This document shows positions 1-53,374 of a stretch of DNA of 53,721 nt, in pieces. The stretch's first letter is position 1. Each line of letters begins with the position of its first letter. The notes below the pieces were generated by a model. The model saw nothing but the letters and a program-made list of their open reading frames with translations, did not search any database and was not told the origin of the DNA. Made by a program: the position numbers and the translations under genes. This DNA is from a virus. The stretch lies in UHGV virus genome UHGV-0138535. One strand, 5' to 3'.

Positions 1-441
1 ATCCGGTTTACGCCATAACGTTGACAGTGCGCCCACCGGATTTTCCACCATCCACGGCACGTTATGCATATTCGCCAGTTTTTCTACCAGTTTTGCGTTA
101 TGCGCCGCCTTCACCTGGAAGTCAGGGTCTTTTTTCCGTTTATCAGCGAACCAGCGAGCGCCTGAAACGGCGAGATTGTCGCATGGAGGAAAGCCCAAGA
201 TAATGTCAGGATCTGGATAAACAGACAATTCAGGGGAGAACATTACCAGGAAATGGCTGTCAATCCATACGTTAAGATATTCAATATTTGGATGAATTAT
301 TTTTACCCCGTCATAATCCCCGTGATTAGCGCCGTCATAGTTGAAGCAATAGCATTTATAACCAGCTTCCGCCCAATCTTTAACGGCGTACCCGCTTCCG
401 TCGTACAGCGACCAGATAACCCAATTTCTAAGCCCGCTCAT
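1..441 (-). CDS. C5-cytosine DNA methyltransferase-like protein, N-terminal part (open to left edge; in-frame continuation at 53398..53721 if circular)
   Basis: Minus-strand ATG at 441 overlapping upstream stop (ATGA); 147 codons open to position 1; SLYDGSGYAVKDW, GFPPCDNLAVSG and MVENPVG resemble C5-MTase motifs I, IV (PC) and VI (EN). Confidence 0.55.
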   Translation of the reverse strand, partial: MSGLRNWVIWSLYDGSGYAVKDWAEAGYKCYCFNYDGANHGDYDGVKIIHPNIEYLNVWIDSHFLVMFSPELSVYPDPDIILGFPPCDNLAVSGARWFADKRKKDPDFQVKAAHNAKLVEKLANMHNVPWMVENPVGALSTLWRKPD

Positions 442-941
442 TTTCTACCCTCAAACGTGAAATAGCGGCGCATGATGATAGTGATCACCGTTACCGCTGC
501 CATTTTTGAGATGAATTGCATAGCTGATATTTCCGGCATAAACGCCATAAACGATAGCGTAGGAAAAATTAACGCATCACCAATGGCGGACGCTATATTT
601 GCAGGCCAACGTTTAGAATCGAAATCACCAGGTAAAACCCGGTAAACGCCGCCAGAAATAAGCGCACCGGAAACAACCGCGACGAATGACGCGATCGCCA
701 CCATTCCGGCGTCGTAATTTATCAGCACCGTGATTGCGCCAGCGGCGGAGCATGTTGTAGCCGACCATTTAAGGCCGCCGCCATATAACAGAAAATCACG
801 AATCATCATATTGACACACACGGCGGCTACCGTGGTGATCGGAATTACCCACGGGCCACAGTGGTTAACAATAAGATTGATGATAACGAAAACGGCGACA
901 TAAACGCAGGCTAATAACCTGTCAATTGCCACCATCTTCAT
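438..941 (-). CDS. small integral membrane protein, tentatively VUT/YhhQ-like transporter family
   Basis: 167-aa track ORF, mostly hydrophobic with several predicted helices; weak recalled resemblance to YhhQ-type transporters; family assignment tentative. Confidence 0.4.
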   Translation of the reverse strand: MKMVAIDRLLACVYVAVFVIINLIVNHCGPWVIPITTVAAVCVNMMIRDFLLYGGGLKWSATTCSAAGAITVLINYDAGMVAIASFVAVVSGALISGGVYRVLPGDFDSKRWPANIASAIGDALIFPTLSFMAFMPEISAMQFISKMAAVTVITIIMRRYFTFEGRK

Positions 942-1260
942 TTAGCTCTCCCTCCCGATCCGCTAATATCTGTTCGGCCTTAAGCGCGTTATAAGCAATA
1001 AGGTCTATAAGAGTGTCGAGCGGATCAGTTCCATTAGCGAGAATAGCCCCTAAACGCGCTTCCTTGAGGCAAATCATTAGATCCCATACATCAAGTGGGG
1101 TTAAATTTGCATTCATCTTAGCGTTGAAAATAGCCGCTATTTTTGGCGCTGATTTTTCTTCTTTTCGATCGTATCCGTTTTGCTCCCCTCTTGCCTCGAT
1201 AGTTTCAGCCGCAAGTCTCAGCAATTCAGCCGCTTTATTCATTTTCTGCACCTCTTGCAT
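922..1260 (-). CDS. hypothetical protein
   Basis: 112-aa track ORF co-oriented in early-left operon; overlaps Dam 3' end by 26 nt. Confidence 0.45.
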   Translation of the reverse strand: MQEVQKMNKAAELLRLAAETIEARGEQNGYDRKEEKSAPKIAAIFNAKMNANLTPLDVWDLMICLKEARLGAILANGTDPLDTLIDLIAYNALKAEQILADREGELNEDGGN

Positions 1261-1774
1261 ATAGCTCTTTACGTGTTATCTGCGTGAAAATACATTCATG
1301 TCTGCATCGTGGATGCCAGATCAGGAACAAGCTCCCCTTATTGTTCCCGCTTACTGGTTTCCCTGTTGCAGCATTGATAAACGCCAGCCGCCCGCGCGTG
1401 ATTAATCGGCATTCGTTTGCCGTCTCCACGCCGTTCATAAACCAGCTAACAGAAATGTCAGCGGGCAATAACATTACGCATCCGATATGATTTCGGCGGT
1501 GTTCAAACGCCGCTTTATCAACGAATGGCCCCGGATTAGAATATGGCGGATTCATCCAGACATACTCACCAGGCATCGCCACCGCTCCCCACGGATAATG
1601 GAGCGTGTCCATTTCTTCGGTTATATATCGCGGTATTAATGCGTTTGCCTTGTTTGCCGCCACATCCGCGACGAACTCGAATTCTCGATCCATTCCTCTA
1701 AAAACGGGTTTTGGCGTTTGCCATAAGTCCTTTATTTCTTTCGGCGTATGGCTGCCGCCGTAATCATTTTTCAT
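1235..1774 (-). CDS. DNA N6-adenine methyltransferase (phage Dam-type)
   Basis: 179 aa; NPPY catalytic motif in WMNPPYSNPGPF typical of N6-adenine MTases. Confidence 0.8.
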   Translation of the reverse strand: MKNDYGGSHTPKEIKDLWQTPKPVFRGMDREFEFVADVAANKANALIPRYITEEMDTLHYPWGAVAMPGEYVWMNPPYSNPGPFVDKAAFEHRRNHIGCVMLLPADISVSWFMNGVETANECRLITRGRLAFINAATGKPVSGNNKGSLFLIWHPRCRHECIFTQITRKELYARGAENE

Positions 1775-1783
1775 TACGCCCCC

Positions 1784-2227
1784 TTAGAAATAATCCTGAT
1801 CTGTTCCCCAGCGGTTATTCAGATACCCCACCAACCACACAAAACGCTCAATACTGATTAGCGGGGCGACCTTGCGATAATGCTTATCTAATATCAGCCG
1901 CGTGGCTTTATCGCTGTAGCCGTTCTTCTCTACCTCCGCTTTGCAGGCCGAAAGCGCGGCGCGGGCGGCAGTCTTTACGGCGTTAAATTGCGGCTCTGAC
2001 ATATTGAATAAGGCCATAGGATCACCATGTGTCAGTCCAATCCGGCGCGGCAGTCCAGCAAAAACCAATGAATGCGCTAACAGCCAATAAAGCGCGGGCT
2101 GCAAAAAGAATATTCCCAATGTCGTTAAATTCAGGAAGCGACCACGTAATAAACATACCCCCCCAGCATAATAACACTGATAACAGTCAGGGCCGCCAGG
2201 AAAACAAAAAGCGTAGCCAAAAGCCAC
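1784..2227 (-). CDS. hypothetical protein (start uncertain)
   Basis: 147-aa track ORF in co-directional gene array; N-terminal third hydrophobic and Cys-rich, true start may be internal (MALFNMSEP). Confidence 0.4.
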   Translation of the reverse strand: MAFGYAFCFPGGPDCYQCYYAGGVCLLRGRFLNLTTLGIFFLQPALYWLLAHSLVFAGLPRRIGLTHGDPMALFNMSEPQFNAVKTAARAALSACKAEVEKNGYSDKATRLILDKHYRKVAPLISIERFVWLVGYLNNRWGTDQDYF

Positions 2228-2260
2228 GCCCCCAACCAGTTAAAAAAGCTCTTAAGCATT

Positions 2261-2464
2261 TTAAACGCCCTCAATTACCCCGCCTTTCACGCGCTCTTTA
2301 ATATCCCATACGTGAGGCTTGCATATTTCCTGATAATAGTGATCCGGCCTGCTGCCGAAATACCATTTGCCATCCATATAAAAATAAACGCCAGAATAAT
2401 TTCCTGGCGCTGCCTTTGTTGCTGCTTCTGGAATTTTCCATTCCATGTAATGTTTAAATTTCAT
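2261..2464 (-). CDS. hypothetical protein
   Basis: 67-aa track ORF, co-oriented, tight spacing. Confidence 0.4.
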   Translation of the reverse strand: MKFKHYMEWKIPEAATKAAPGNYSGVYFYMDGKWYFGSRPDHYYQEICKPHVWDIKERVKGGVIEGV

Positions 2465-2648
2465 GAGTTTTTAAATAACCCCTTCTGAATGCTTTGATGT
2501 AAATTCCTAGTCGCCTTATATGTTGAACGCCATCAATAAGACGTATTAAATAAATCGCTCCTTTTGCGTCAGATACAAATCTACACCCGAAACCAATGCC
2601 AACTAATTTTAGGTTATCAGGTATTCGATAATCAGTTTCTTGTTCCAT
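2454..2648 (-). CDS. hypothetical protein
   Basis: 64-aa track ORF overlapping neighbour by 11 nt. Confidence 0.35.
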   Translation of the reverse strand: MEQETDYRIPDNLKLVGIGFGCRFVSDAKGAIYLIRLIDGVQHIRRLGIYIKAFRRGYLKTHEI

Positions 2649-2746
2649 ACATTACCTCATATGGTATTCAATAAACCATCTGATAAACAGGCATAAGGCA
2701 ATAAAACCCCAGCAACAGCACATATAAAACAATGTGTCGTCCATAA

Positions 2747-3025
2747 TTAAGCCTCAATAACACCGTAATCAAACGTGCCTAAATACAGTTCGATACTTAC
2801 AACCTCAATACCATCAATGCACCGTTTCCACACAGACACCTGGCTTTCATTTTCTCTGAAGTGCATATTAGAAAGCACTTCATCGGCTGGGTAGCCTTTC
2901 CCGGCGACGTAGGCATCGTGACCTACGCCACCTTCTACACAGTAGAGCATCAATTCGCGTTCCATCTTGCTTCCTCCGCACCGTAAACCTTTTAATTTCG
3001 ACTTACAAAACGGATACGCAATCAC
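2747..3025 (-). CDS. hypothetical protein (start uncertain)
   Basis: 92-aa track ORF; internal Met (MERELMLYCVEGG) may be the true start. Confidence 0.35.
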   Translation of the reverse strand: MIAYPFCKSKLKGLRCGGSKMERELMLYCVEGGVGHDAYVAGKGYPADEVLSNMHFRENESQVSVWKRCIDGIEVVSIELYLGTFDYGVIEA

Positions 3026-3063
3026 AATACAAAGTGTATATTCATGTAATCGGAATCACTCGG

Positions 3064-3684
3064 TTAATGCAGTACACGTTTCCCCTGTTCAGGCATCGGC
3101 TGTGCGTTTTTCCGTGCGTCATTAAGCACAGCGATAGCCGCCTGTACACCGAAATCATTTGCACGCATATCATTGCCAACCATTTCACCGTAAAACAATG
3201 GCATGAGCGCTTTTACTTCTTCCTCTTTGTGGCCTTCCTCAATGAATTTCTGCAACATCTTAACCTCAAAGATATCTTTCATCAGGCCGCGCATAGAATG
3301 TAGTGAAACACTACCAAGCTGATCCTTGTTCAACGGAAAAATAACAGCACTTCCGAACGCGAGCGGTTCAACCTCTTCCGGCACTGGTACGCGTCCGAAT
3401 TCTTCCTCCATGCGCTTCACAAAAGTAAGAGAGAATACATAACGCGCCACCGATGTTTTTTCTTCCATACTTAAAGACACGTAATCGCGGATTGGCGCAC
3501 CCATCACAATATCAACAACCTGTAGCGCCAGATTCAAATCAGCGTCATACGCGCCAGCTTCCATATCTTTCAATACTTCGTGATAATCTTTAATTTCCAC
3601 TTCGTGAAAGTTTGCATCATCTGTATAGCGAGTGATCAACATACCTTCATTACCGAGAGAGTAAGCTGTTTTGATGTCGTTCAT
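3064..3684 (-). CDS. hypothetical early protein
   Basis: 206-aa track ORF in early-left operon. Confidence 0.5.
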   Translation of the reverse strand: MNDIKTAYSLGNEGMLITRYTDDANFHEVEIKDYHEVLKDMEAGAYDADLNLALQVVDIVMGAPIRDYVSLSMEEKTSVARYVFSLTFVKRMEEEFGRVPVPEEVEPLAFGSAVIFPLNKDQLGSVSLHSMRGLMKDIFEVKMLQKFIEEGHKEEEVKALMPLFYGEMVGNDMRANDFGVQAAIAVLNDARKNAQPMPEQGKRVLH

Positions 3685-3697
3685 GATATTTATCCTT

Positions 3698-4030
3698 TTA
3701 TAGTGGGTGATGCCATTTCATTTCTGTTTCTGAATTAAACGGGTTTCCTTCGCTTGAAAGGAATAAATCACGCTCCCGTTTCAGTTCTTCCGGGCTTATT
3801 TCTATTTCATCAATCTGACCGAACGATCCCGGCATCATTCGTTTTAAATCAGATAGCGGACGCATAAGGCCGCAGCCGCGTAACAGCATATCGACCGCGA
3901 ATTGTCTACGTCCGGCGGCGTCATTAAAGCGCCGTGCCCAGGGTACAACCACGATCCGGCGTTCGAATTCGATAAATAGTGATAGCTTATTTGTTTCGCT
4001 ATCATAGGCCTTATGTAATTTAATTTTCAT
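3698..4030 (-). CDS. hypothetical protein
   Basis: 110-aa track ORF; overlaps next gene by 11 nt. Confidence 0.45.
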   Translation of the reverse strand: MKIKLHKAYDSETNKLSLFIEFERRIVVVPWARRFNDAAGRRQFAVDMLLRGCGLMRPLSDLKRMMPGSFGQIDEIEISPEELKRERDLFLSSEGNPFNSETEMKWHHPL

Positions 4031-9870: not shown

Positions 9871-10407
9871 ATGCGCAAGTTAACACATGAAGAACAAGTT
9901 GCAGCTATCGCGAAAGTTAATCCTGATGTTGAAGTGCTGGTTGAAATAGTTAATAACAGTACAAAAGTATTATGCCGCTGCAAGGTTTGTGATCATGAGT
10001 GGTCGGCTAAACCTAGAGACATTAAGAGCGGGCGCGGTTGCCCGAAATGCGCTAAATACGGGTTTTTATCACACTACAACGGAAAACTTTACATCATGGT
10101 TGATGATCTTGAAGTGCCTACACAAATGAAAATTGGTGTAAGCGTAAAAGAGAACGAAAGGAGGAACAGAGTATTTAAAAGTGCTCGTAAGGCAGGTGTA
10201 AGGCTGACTGATTTACAGGTAGTTAAAACATGGAATGGGCCTACTGAGATTATGCAGGAAATAGAAAGCAAAATGCACGATGCTTTCAGTGACTATAAAA
10301 TAAACTTCCCTGTTAAGTTTGATGGTAGCACTGAATTTTTTTATTACAGGCCGGAAGTATTCGACATGGTAGAAGAAACATATAAAGAGATTGTTTGCTG
10401 TCAATAA
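9871..10407 (+). CDS. zinc-ribbon plus T5orf172/GIY-YIG-like domain protein
   Basis: 178 aa; CRCKVCDHEW...CPKCA zinc ribbon; GKLYIMVDD...KIGVS...ENERRNRV...HDAF...GSTEFFYY resembles T5orf172 motifs; AT-rich; own RBS AAGGAG. Confidence 0.55.
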   Translation: MRKLTHEEQVAAIAKVNPDVEVLVEIVNNSTKVLCRCKVCDHEWSAKPRDIKSGRGCPKCAKYGFLSHYNGKLYIMVDDLEVPTQMKIGVSVKENERRNRVFKSARKAGVRLTDLQVVKTWNGPTEIMQEIESKMHDAFSDYKINFPVKFDGSTEFFYYRPEVFDMVEETYKEIVCCQ

Positions 10408-30102: not shown

Positions 30103-30762
30103 ATGAAACGGTTAGCAAAAGTGGCAATGATTGCGGCGGTATTGGGTCTGGTTGGTTGCAATGAGGATAATGAAAAAGCGCCTATAGTGACCAATCAAGA
30201 GCAACAAGCATTAGCAGAGAAAAATGCTAAATGGCTTGCAGAACAACAAGCAAAACAAGCCGCATACGATGCACAGTTAGAAAAAGAAAATGCTGGTAAA
30301 CAGTGGCTTGTAGTTGAAAGAAAAGATGATATGCAGGACGCAAAAAACGTATTCCTTTTTGTGAAAGCAGAACAATTCAGCGGAAGTCTTGATGCTTTCC
30401 CGACACTGAAGGCACAGGATAAGAATAAACCGGTATTAACAATCGCTTGCCAGGGTAATAAAACAAAAATGTTCGTAGCATGGTCACACCATGTAACTGA
30501 CGCCGGGGACACTACTTATATTAACTACCGGATCGGCGTTCACAAAGCTGTAGCTACTGAGTGGTGGCGGTCAACTAATTATAAAGCTCTTGGATTATGG
30601 GACGGCAAAAAAGCCATCCCAATGATTAAAAAACTGGTTAACGAAAAACAATTCATCATTGAAGTAGTGCCGGAAGCTGGCGACATTGAGAAAGCAGTGT
30701 TTAACATTGATGGTCTTTATAACCACATCGACAAAGTGAAAAACGCTTGCAACTGGAATTAA
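30103..30762 (+). CDS. lipoprotein (moron, opposite strand within tail operon)
   Basis: 219 aa; signal peptide with lipobox LVGC (MKRLAKVAMIAAVLGLVGC). Confidence 0.6.
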   Translation: MKRLAKVAMIAAVLGLVGCNEDNEKAPIVTNQEQQALAEKNAKWLAEQQAKQAAYDAQLEKENAGKQWLVVERKDDMQDAKNVFLFVKAEQFSGSLDAFPTLKAQDKNKPVLTIACQGNKTKMFVAWSHHVTDAGDTTYINYRIGVHKAVATEWWRSTNYKALGLWDGKKAIPMIKKLVNEKQFIIEVVPEAGDIEKAVFNIDGLYNHIDKVKNACNWN

Positions 30763-51548: not shown

Positions 51549-51956
51549 TCACACCTCCCAATAATTCTGAATATATTCGTTAATATCAGGTAACACCCCT
51601 GAATGTTCTTTCACTTTTACGAATATCTGGCCGTTTTTTATTTTATGGCACTTTACAACCTTAAGACTAAAAACCTGCCTATCATCAACCCAAAAATGAG
51701 CGTAAGTAAGACTATCGAATATTGCTTTTAAGCAATTATCAATATCGTGTGGGCGTAGTGTAGGTGGCGCTACATATATATAAACGGAAACATTAAAATC
51801 AATATTAAGATCAAGTTTTAGTGATTCTATTATTTCTTTGACTTTTTTTTGGAAATCCTTGCCTTTGTTTGTTACATACTTACTACCCCTTTTATTGTTG
51901 CCGTAATAAGAATTAACCGATGGTGCCCAGGGTAACGTGAATTCAAATTCACGCAT
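51549..51956 (-). CDS. rusA: RusA-family Holliday junction resolvase
   Basis: Internal ATG at 51956 with AAGGAG RBS; LPWAPSVNSYY...RPHDIDNCLKAIFDSLTYAHFWVDDRQV matches RusA motifs. Confidence 0.75.
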   Translation of the reverse strand: MREFEFTLPWAPSVNSYYGNNKRGSKYVTNKGKDFQKKVKEIIESLKLDLNIDFNVSVYIYVAPPTLRPHDIDNCLKAIFDSLTYAHFWVDDRQVFSLKVVKCHKIKNGQIFVKVKEHSGVLPDINEYIQNYWEV

Positions 51957-52445
51957 CAAAATCTCCTTGCTTACACCATTGTTTTCATGGAAACAATATT
52001 TTTTTTCTCCTTTTTTTCTGACATCCACTGCATCTTCAAAATTATCAAACTGACCAAGATACACATTTTTACCATTAACACATATTTCCGCTCTATAGTA
52101 TCCGTTAGAAAGTTTATGAACCCCAGGCTGCCCACTTTTATTATTTTTTGGTTTTGCCTGATTTCTTCCGTTTTGCTTATGAGTAACAAGGCGTAAATTT
52201 TCTATCCTGTTATCATTTCTGTTGTGCCAAATATGATCTATCTCGCATCCTTTCGGAATTGGTCCGTTATGCATTTCCCATATAATTCTATGTACTTTAT
52301 GTAATTTATCGTTAACACGAACAACCCAATAACCACTATTTTTATGGATGCAACCAGCCAAATCACCAGCGTTACACTTTCCTTTCTTTCCCTTCCAATA
52401 TAAAAAACCGTTGTCGTATTCAAATATATCATGCCAATTATTCAT
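51957..52445 (-). CDS. HNH homing endonuclease with AP2-like DNA-binding domain (no own stop; in frame with rusA)
   Basis: N-terminal 163 codons of track ORF 51549..52445; HNH motif CEIDHIWHNRNDNRIENLRLVTHKQN and AP2-like GVHKLSNGYYRAEI; AT-rich. Confidence 0.65.
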
Positions 52446-53238: not shown

Positions 53239-53358
53239 AATGCTCTCTCCTTTTCAGGTGATTTCTACGCATTTCAGCGCTGCCGGATTTTTAAAGAGCA
53301 TTTTGTTTGCTTGAAGTATACAAAATGGATACGTGCTAACAAGGTGCAAAGCGCCATT

Positions 53359-53374
53359 ATGTGACATTCATCAC
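53359..53374. promoter_or_regulatory. CRP-type palindrome TGTGACATTCATCACA
   Basis: Perfect TGTGA-N6-TCACA flanked by inverted CCATTTTGT / ACAAAATGG motifs. Confidence 0.35.

Follow-up and report, generated by a model that had tools for sequence, protein, structure and literature searches.

A transporter-like membrane protein of the YhhQ/QPTR family without a DpdA partner in the methyltransferase cassette of a temperate coliphage

The virus genome UHGV-0138535 (53,721 nucleotides (nt), numbered from its first letter and referred to below as the window) carries a DNA methyltransferase cassette that spans both window ends and includes a gene for a 167-amino-acid (aa) membrane protein related to the YhhQ/QPTR (VUT) transporters. 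Relatives of this protein in other phages are almost always encoded beside a DpdA-like transglycosylase, whereas no such enzyme is encoded anywhere in this genome. The window protein belongs to a DpdA-less clade of transporters, and it is this selectively maintained clade, found inside a methyltransferase cassette, that is new here. The Dam and Dcm-like methyltransferases that accompany it are of already-known kinds, the transporter is a divergent and unannotated member of a known family, and the cassette is not a new system. We consider the best overall explanation, with a probability of about 0.5, to be a methylase cassette joined by a small transporter (mini-QPTR) that imports a 7-deazaguanine base and feeds the queuosine (Q) pathway of host tRNA. 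An earlier sequence-only reading of positions 1-1774 had seen a DNA-modification module that might import a modified-base precursor. Its observations were largely correct and incomplete in that one gene was missed and another was split by the window ends; its interpretation is partly supported by the data below.

The membrane protein was described in that reading as a multi-helix protein of 167 aa with a weak resemblance to VUT/YhhQ-type precursor transporters, and both points hold. Six transmembrane helices are predicted, an AlphaFold2 (AF2) model consists of six long helices (predicted local distance difference test score, pLDDT, 67.6), and six transmembrane segments are annotated in the orthologue of phage mEp021 (TMHMM, Phobius). 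A direct hidden Markov model (HMM) comparison with VUT gives a divided answer: the protein aligns end to end with Pfam Vut_1 (PF02592; residues 13-157 on profile positions 6-149 of 152), but at E 0.17 and 12.7 bits it lies below the gathering score of 27.2. The assignment is therefore based on transitive homology and profile-profile homology. While a word-indexed search returned 12 close relatives, an exhaustive search with a profile, run against 1.84 billion representatives, yielded 262 relatives at E<=1e-3, most of them 155-180 aa long. When 125 of the 262 were tested against Pfam, 121 matched PF02592, the best at 1.9e-16, and one of the relatives carries a fused QueF-like domain. The family profile built with the window protein as master aligns with E. 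coli YhhQ/QPTR in hhalign at 94.5% probability (E 8.4e-8), covering 144 columns and window residues 7-153; only this broad profile is informative, as a narrow 7-sequence profile gave an insignificant match to YhhQ (E 0.1). The protein also matches the unannotated phrog_4899 (3.8e-45), and a profile search of the Protein Data Bank (PDB) with it returned chance Tim22 matches only.

All near-invariant residues of the family are retained in the window protein (N22, G29, R48, D49, A82, S85, N115, D122, F126, F131, Q142 and K146), including the polar positions N22, R48, D49, N115, D122, Q142 and K146. It is homologous to QPTR/YhhQ (COG1738, PF02592) over nearly its full length, is likewise a polytopic helical protein, and shares the motifs ...RD..., ...AS... 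and ...D(S/A)LxFP..AF.... Differences from E. coli YhhQ are its length, shorter by ~55 aa (167 vs 221), its phage origin and its substrate, which is putative. Collectively, these comparisons support a place for the protein in the YhhQ/QPTR (VUT) family, as a small and divergent member that falls short of strict Pfam membership. The substrates of characterized QPTR proteins are preQ0 and preQ1 in E. coli and queuine in C. trachomatis (PMC11130926).

The genomic surroundings of the relatives point to the chemistry that this family serves. Scanning of IMG/VR with an 11-sequence alignment identified a transporter relative on 447 viral contigs, and neighborhoods were read in the best 80 of these. 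At 75 of the 80 loci, a protein of ~246 aa is encoded on the same strand, in most cases by a gene whose end lies 60 nt or less from the transporter start or overlaps that start. This neighbor has no Pfam match and matches phrog_887, "queuine tRNA-ribosyltransferase", at 6.9e-68. Three further loci (L036, L037 and L039) have a gene ending at the transporter start that encodes a 425-aa protein with a TGT (tRNA-guanine transglycosylase) domain (PF01702, 1e-5) and a DUF6884 domain. The other two loci are cut at the contig edge, so that a TGT-superfamily gene adjoins the mini-transporter in 78 of 78 evaluable cases. Of the genes that surround the transporter in the window, a Dcm-like methyltransferase adjoins the transporter at none of the 80 loci, the single weak match (L015) lying ~3 kb away on the opposite strand, and near the transporter in the IMG/VR loci there is no Dam match and one weak DUF6378 match (L029).

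Cultured phages present the same arrangement. Fourteen cultured-phage records outside the mEp group carry a transporter relative with 28-37% identity. In the six cultured phages that were checked (the T1-like Opt-719, LHE71 and Phc, RCIP0319, the bat-faeces phage Tbat1_6 and the Pectobacterium phage PEAT2), the next downstream gene is DpdA-like (HMM E 1e-55 to 3e-68), mostly with an overlap of a few bases, and the metagenomic relative P0136 likewise has a mini-transporter with a DpdA-like gene. Both genes are mostly annotated as hypothetical in Opt-719, LHE71, Phc and RCIP0319. Judging from the sequences, the pair predicts a salvage-dependent 7-deazaguanine modification of the DNA of these four phages; no report of 7-deazaguanine DNA modification in T1-like phages was found in the literature searched. 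Hutinet et al. (2019) recognized that some phages encode YhhQ homologues and suggested that phages with DpdA only might use host or exogenous precursors (PMC6884629). The tight two-gene cassette of mini-transporter and DpdA fits this idea, and a service of the mini-transporter family to modified-base DNA chemistry elsewhere is strongly supported. The window transporter is of the same subfamily as those of the cassettes in Drexlerviridae, PEAT2 and IMG/VR contigs, with 30-37% identity to them, and it has a similar 4-nt overlap with a next gene of similar length. In contrast to these cassettes, that neighbor is a Dcm-like methyltransferase, and the defining enzyme, DpdA, is absent genome-wide. 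The earlier suggestion of precursor import for modified-base DNA thus finds backing in the family as a whole, while the key enzyme is lacking in this phage.

The absence of a DpdA-like gene, already remarked on in the sequence-only reading, was confirmed by HMM search and ORF (open reading frame) scan. An HMM of 73 DpdA-like neighbors, run with filters off against the six-frame translation of the circularized window, gave a best E of 0.49 and detected no remnant; TGT (PF01702), QueC, QueE and FolE domains were not found in the 10 larger non-structural ORFs; and the annotations of the related phages MagusPhagus and mEp021 list neither DpdA/TGT nor genes for preQ0 synthesis such as FolE, QueD, QueE and QueC. 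Precursor supply could come from the putative importer of the phage and from the E. coli host, which makes preQ0 and preQ1. Since every virus shown to carry 7-deazaguanine DNA encodes DpdA (PMC10516641), and this one does not, 7-deazaguanine modification of its DNA is not predicted. The transporter gene is under strong purifying selection, with a ratio of nonsynonymous to synonymous substitution rates (dN/dS) of 0.029 at a dS of 0.45 between the window and mEp021. This is the lowest value in the cassette, and it argues that the transporter is no relic.

A neighbor-joining tree unites the four transporters that have no DpdA beside them in one clade (bootstrap 98), which is sister (89%) to the DpdA-linked transporters of T1-like phages. 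Its members are the window protein, that of the relative L004, that of another temperate-phage contig (P0133) and that of a 128-kb phage contig (P0138). No neighbor gene common to the three DpdA-less backbones was found: the second gene downstream of the P0133 transporter (L085-L088), in a temperate phage, encodes an N6_N4 methyltransferase, and around the P0138 transporter (L096) are genes for RNA ligase, SIR2 and DNA ligase. Asn at residue 44 was considered as a marker of the clade and rejected; this position is D in 89 and N in 14 of 125 relatives, and N, T and V also occur in other family members. The adjacency of transporter and Dcm-like genes represents a single-lineage event and is therefore weak evidence for functional coupling between the two, which our data do not support.

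The cassette belongs to a well-defined group of coliphages. Window positions 1-4000 are 94% identical to Escherichia phage MagusPhagus and 85-88% identical to mEp021, mEp010, mEp013, mEp044, mEp515 and mEp554, with gene order kept, and every gene within 1..4000 lies on the minus strand. The mEp021 group comprises Nus-dependent, non-lambdoid temperate "mEpimmI" coliphages (PMC11893012). Joining 53398..53721 to 1..441 yields an uninterrupted ORF of 254 codons that matches the 254-aa "DNA methyltransferase" of MagusPhagus. As the frame runs on from one window end to the other, the window holds a whole phage genome of ~53.7 kb in circularly permuted form, with the break between codons 147 and 148 of the Dcm-like gene (...WRKPD/FIFNPC...). 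The C5-methyltransferase-like gene that the sequence-only reading had placed within 1-1774 is thus represented there by its first 147 codons only, the remainder lying at the far end of the window.

The phage is an mEp021-like (mEpimmI) temperate coliphage with an N-antiterminated early operon, whose distal part is made up of 53398..53721 and 1..1774 on the minus strand. Four overlapping genes are transcribed in the order dam, DUF6378 gene, membrane-protein gene and Dcm-like methyltransferase gene, with successive overlaps of 8 nt (or 26 nt, depending on the DUF6378 start), 20 nt and 4 nt. The two methylase genes had been described as flanking the membrane-protein gene; this is accurate for the Dcm-like gene, which adjoins it, and not for dam, from which it is separated by the DUF6378 gene that had been overlooked. 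The ATGA coupling noted earlier is present, as the transporter gene's TGA shares bases with the ATG at which the Dcm-like gene begins, and the identical 4-nt overlap is annotated in mEp021 and MagusPhagus. The four-gene order is kept in L004, whose proteins are 51-64% identical to those of the window. Of 5426 complete E. coli genomes, 35 carry the cassette as a prophage; the name given there to the transporter by the Prokaryotic Genome Annotation Pipeline (PGAP) is "hypothetical protein". On the 3' side of the cassette, a non-coding spacer separates it from NinF/NinG/RusA/Q genes. A predicted terminator (t4) is annotated in the corresponding spacer of mEp021, and nutR2 has been placed downstream of the methyltransferase gene (PMC11893012); a simple scan detected no minus-strand terminator after the cassette. 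The spacer contains GCGCTGAAATGCG, a candidate for a boxB-like hairpin. An Rfam scan revealed neither a preQ1 riboswitch nor any other family, and no tRNAs were found.

The first gene of the cassette encodes an ordinary phage orphan Dam. The Dam-type adenine methyltransferase of the sequence-only reading was recovered with its NPPY catalytic motif (motif IV, aa 75-78): the protein matches PF05869 (8e-52, 175.8 bits, cut-off 28.1) and the NCBIfam equivalog TIGR01712 (1e-41, 142.2 bits, cut-off 97.05), both end to end, as well as phrog_111 (9.6e-65). It resembles phage orphan Dam proteins in its full-length match and in NPPY and shows no notable difference from them. Its dN/dS against mEp021 is 0.05. 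The target is presumably GATC, a site that is not avoided in the window, where it occurs 245 times compared with 173±12 in dinucleotide-preserving shuffles, a ~1.4-fold over-representation.

The second gene encodes a small helical DUF6378 protein, whose match to PF19905 scores 37.3 bits (cut-off 27.1). Its ORF extends to an upstream ATG at 1260 (112 aa). The start at 1242, which is the one used in mEp021 and MagusPhagus, is preceded by the ribosome-binding-like sequence AGAGGTG. The window protein is a short form, similar to the 99-aa form of L004, and lacks the poorly conserved C-terminal segment of 64 aa present in the DUF6378 proteins of mEp021 (L001 5946..6443) and MagusPhagus (L002 5922..6434). 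The dN/dS between window and mEp021 is 0.12, and PDB sequences gave no match. PHROGs tags profiles related to DUF6378 as "phosphofructokinase", which seems to be an annotation artifact.

The last gene of the cassette is a member of a common phage family of Dcm-like methyltransferases that has experimental support. The full 254-aa protein has no match in Pfam (even at E<=10 and including PF00145), NCBIfam or PDB sequences; it matches phrog_757, "DNA methyltransferase", at 5.2e-49. It has more than 2300 homologues, and among those listed, 2 of 120 have a precomputed PF00145 match. By tblastn, the family is present in 1516 of 50,697 phage records, including T1-like, Jersey-like, rV5-like and Webervirus phages, and the BASEL collection names it "Dcm-like C5 cytosine methyltransferase". 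Invariant family motifs are FDGSG, DHGxY, FPPC(T/D), ENP, WRKPD, RDAYxKKTC and LGGKSxRTKxIRSLTPRGFA, with FPPC87 and E133-N-P invariant across the 47 members aligned. The motifs called atypical in the earlier reading do differ from the textbook PCQ and ENV, but within this family they are the standard form. An AF2 model from the 47 sequences (pLDDT 88.1; predicted template modeling score, pTM, 0.87) was compared with PDB structures by Foldseek, and the top 50 matches are catalytic domains of DNMT3A/3B/3C and MET1 (best DNMT3B/3A, E 7.8e-7, probability 1.0, TM 0.4-0.5), all of them from C5-cytosine DNA methyltransferases whose recognition regions are small. No GNAVP-like motif X is visible in the alignment, and ~80 aa lie between the ENP block and the motif IX-like RSLTPRGFA; the target-recognition region of the window protein is probably small and DNMT3-like.

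A member of this family has been studied in the T1-like phage K42, whose 711-bp dcm methylates multicopy single-stranded DNA (msDNA), as detected by liquid chromatography-mass spectrometry of 5-methylcytosine (5mC), and triggers retron Ec86; a CCWGG-site mutant of the msDNA implies CCWGG as its target (preprint 10.1101/2023.08.16.553469). In the same study, the predicted structure of K42 Dcm was superposed on DNMT3A, and a dead mutant carried C82A/E128A/K175A/K176A. In the BASEL phage LeonhardEuler, C82, E128, K175 and K176 fall exactly at these positions, in FPPC, ENP and PKKTC, and their counterparts in the window protein are C87, E133, K180 and K181 within the shared motifs. The window protein is 47-60% identical to T1-like, Jersey-like, rV5-like and Webervirus members (roughly 50-55% to the T1-like ones specifically) and shares with the family the DNMT3-like fold and the FPPC/ENP/KKTC residues. 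It differs in a slightly longer C-terminal tail (254 aa vs about 230), in a motif IV that reads PPCDN rather than the majority PPCTD, and in the location of its gene in a temperate phage beside a transporter; its specificity is presumed, with CCWGG as the likely target. CCWGG sites are not avoided in the window, with 121 occurrences vs 59±8.5 in dinucleotide-preserving shuffles, an about twofold over-representation. The dN/dS against mEp021 is 0.10. Since retron Ec86 is triggered by the family to which the gene belongs, it may also sense these temperate phages.

Table 1. Coordinates of cassette features in the window and of transporter-transglycosylase pairs in related contigs and phages.
Feature	Coordinates	Strand	Basis or remark
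dam, phage orphan N6-adenine DNA methyltransferase, 179 aa	1235..1774	-	PF05869, TIGR01712, phrog_111
NPPY catalytic motif (motif IV) of Dam	1541..1552	-	read from translation
DUF6378 small helical protein, 106 aa from ATG 1242	922..1242	-	PF19905 3.4e-9
mini-QPTR/YhhQ/VUT-family membrane protein, 167 aa, six predicted transmembrane helices	438..941	-	Vut_1, phrog_4899, hhalign, AF2
ATGA stop/start overlap, transporter gene / Dcm-like gene	438..441	-	read from sequence
Dcm-like short C5-cytosine DNA methyltransferase, codons 1-147	1..441	-	phrog_757, AF2, Foldseek
Dcm-like methyltransferase, codons 148-254 + stop	53398..53721	-	continuation across window ends
YDGSG of Dcm-like protein	391..405	-	family alignment
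FPPC with catalytic Cys87	181..192	-	family alignment
ENPV with Glu133	34..45	-	family alignment
TKKTC, K180/K181	53614..53628	-	Dcm-like protein
RSLTPRGFARAV	53458..53493	-	Dcm-like protein
Non-coding spacer, 159 nt, end of cassette	53239..53397	-	between Dcm-like gene and NinF-like gene
TGT + DUF6884 fusion, example	L039 1739..3016		second transglycosylase partner type for mini-transporter family
mini-VUT overlapping or just upstream of phrog_887 DpdA-like gene	about 3986..5290 in L090, L092, L093, L094		Opt-719, LHE71, Phc, RCIP0319

We propose that the Dam and the Dcm-like enzyme, expressed early, would mark replicating phage DNA with N6-methyladenine (m6A) and 5-methylcytosine (m5C), and that this two-methylase marking would counter restriction, as orphan methylases of phages usually do. 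By homology, the mini-QPTR could import a 7-deazaguanine base, be it preQ0, preQ1 or queuine. In most phages, the mini-transporter would feed this base to the adjacent DpdA transglycosylase, which swaps it into DNA. The present clade lost its DpdA partner and retained the transporter, which is under strong purifying selection. The imported base could then pass to the tRNA-guanine transglycosylase (Tgt) of the host, so that queuosine in host tRNA is raised or maintained during infection. Host Tgt seems the likeliest consumer because the phage appears to encode no enzyme able to use the base. A comparable proposal, that phages with Q-precursor genes but without DpdA boost host Q, was made by Hutinet et al. 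(2019) (PMC6884629).

Several points weigh against this explanation. PreQ1 is already made by E. coli, which also possesses a YhhQ, and it is not obvious how host tRNA would benefit from an extra importer. The role of the DUF6378 protein is left unexplained. On its own, the window protein misses the Vut_1 gathering score, the confidence of its structural model is moderate, and a BFVD fold search gave nothing significant, the best match being a "putative vitamin uptake transporter" at E 1.0. What a transporter carries is notoriously difficult to deduce from its sequence (PMC11130926), and the substrate of the DpdA-less clade could have changed. As for the methylases, the over-representation of GATC and CCWGG is compatible with self-methylation and is no demonstration of it.

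A changed substrate is the leading alternative. After loss of DpdA, the clade might carry a different small molecule, such as another nucleobase or something akin to a vitamin, for a purpose that has nothing to do with 7-deazaguanines or the methyltransferases. The separation of the DpdA-less proteins in a well-supported clade, changes such as Asn for the majority Asp at residue 44, the variation of specificity within QPTR (PMC11130926) and the presence of the clade in three unrelated phage backbones without shared neighbors would all agree with such a shift. All experimentally defined QPTR substrates, however, are 7-deazaguanines (PMC11130926), the remaining near-invariant polar residues are unchanged, and position 44 also varies in other family members and provides no clade-specific mark. 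We regard a substrate shift as rather unlikely. It is improbable, in our estimate, that the DpdA-less mini-QPTR clade marks an unrecognized strategy in which an imported 7-deazapurine or related base is used without DpdA, whether by reprogramming queuosine in host tRNA or by modification of DNA or RNA through a non-TGT enzyme, possibly the DUF6378 protein. The idea that the cassette hypermodifies phage DNA, with a modified-base precursor such as a 7-deazaguanine imported by the transporter and installed by an unrecognized non-DpdA enzyme (the DUF6378 protein, some other hypothetical protein, or the Tgt of the host if it acts on DNA), draws on the almost constant pairing of the transporter family with a DNA transglycosylase in other phages, on the position of the transporter gene among DNA-modifying enzyme genes that it overlaps, on its strong conservation without DpdA and on several ORFs of no assigned function in the cassette and genome. 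It is difficult to reconcile with a genome that encodes no TGT-superfamily protein, with the presence of DpdA in every virus with shown 7-deazaguanine DNA (PMC10516641) and with the lack of a neighbor gene common to the other members of the clade. NdeI cuts mEp phage DNA in routine analyses of restriction fragment length polymorphism (RFLP) (PMC11893012), which is weak evidence in the same direction, and we consider this kind of hypermodification very improbable.

Small early-expressed phage membrane proteins often have roles in exclusion, lysis or membrane perturbation. The window protein, for which no substrate-using partner enzyme is encoded, might accordingly act in superinfection exclusion, lysis timing or membrane perturbation, its VUT resemblance being merely ancestral. 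Such a role seems quite improbable, as the retention of all invariant polar and charged intramembrane residues and the dN/dS of 0.029 are what is expected of a working transporter, and the gene lies in the early lytic operon and not in the position of a lysogeny-expressed moron. A last alternative would link the transporter to its immediate neighbor: it could supply a cofactor or an alternative group donor to the Dcm-like enzyme, resulting in a cytosine modification other than 5mC. The ATGA overlap, the conservation of the pair down to 51-64% protein identity and the departure of motifs IV (FPPC(D/T)) and VI (ENP) from the canonical PCQ and ENV could be read in this way. However, almost all of the 1516 phage records with the methyltransferase family lack the transporter, none of the 80 IMG/VR transporter loci has an adjoining family member, a member with the same motifs makes ordinary 5mC, and the adjacency traces to a single lineage, so that we hold this coupling to be extremely improbable. 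The import of a 7-deazaguanine base for host tRNA remains our preferred explanation.

Three other regions of the window are of interest independently of the cassette. In a 298-aa ORF at 51549..52445 on the minus strand, an HNH_3 endonuclease domain (8e-21) is found together with a Holliday-junction resolvase domain of the RusA type (6e-12); the resolvase of mEp021 is a stand-alone protein of ~135 aa, and the window ORF resembles a rusA gene to which an HNH homing-endonuclease module has been fused. At 30103..30762 on the plus strand, opposite to the surrounding tail-gene region, a 219-aa ORF matches the VasI type VI secretion family (PF11319, 1.2e-15) and is a possible moron. In the replication region, a 178-aa ORF at 9871..10407 on the plus strand carries domains of the treble-clef zinc finger (DUF4379) and T5orf172/MUG113 (GIY-YIG-like) kinds; it is likely a mobile nuclease and has no counterpart at the matching place in the MagusPhagus annotation.

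The compact cassette of mini-QPTR and DpdA is widespread in phages and offers a cheap genomic marker for phages that probably place salvaged 7-deazaguanines into their DNA without biosynthesis genes of their own. Retention of the transporter after DpdA loss in at least three unrelated backbones suggests that phages use Q precursors for purposes beyond DNA modification, and it raises the testable question of why a Q-precursor importer is retained by a phage that lacks DpdA. Phage manipulation of host queuosine thereby becomes directly testable in tractable K-12 phages such as mEp021 and MagusPhagus.

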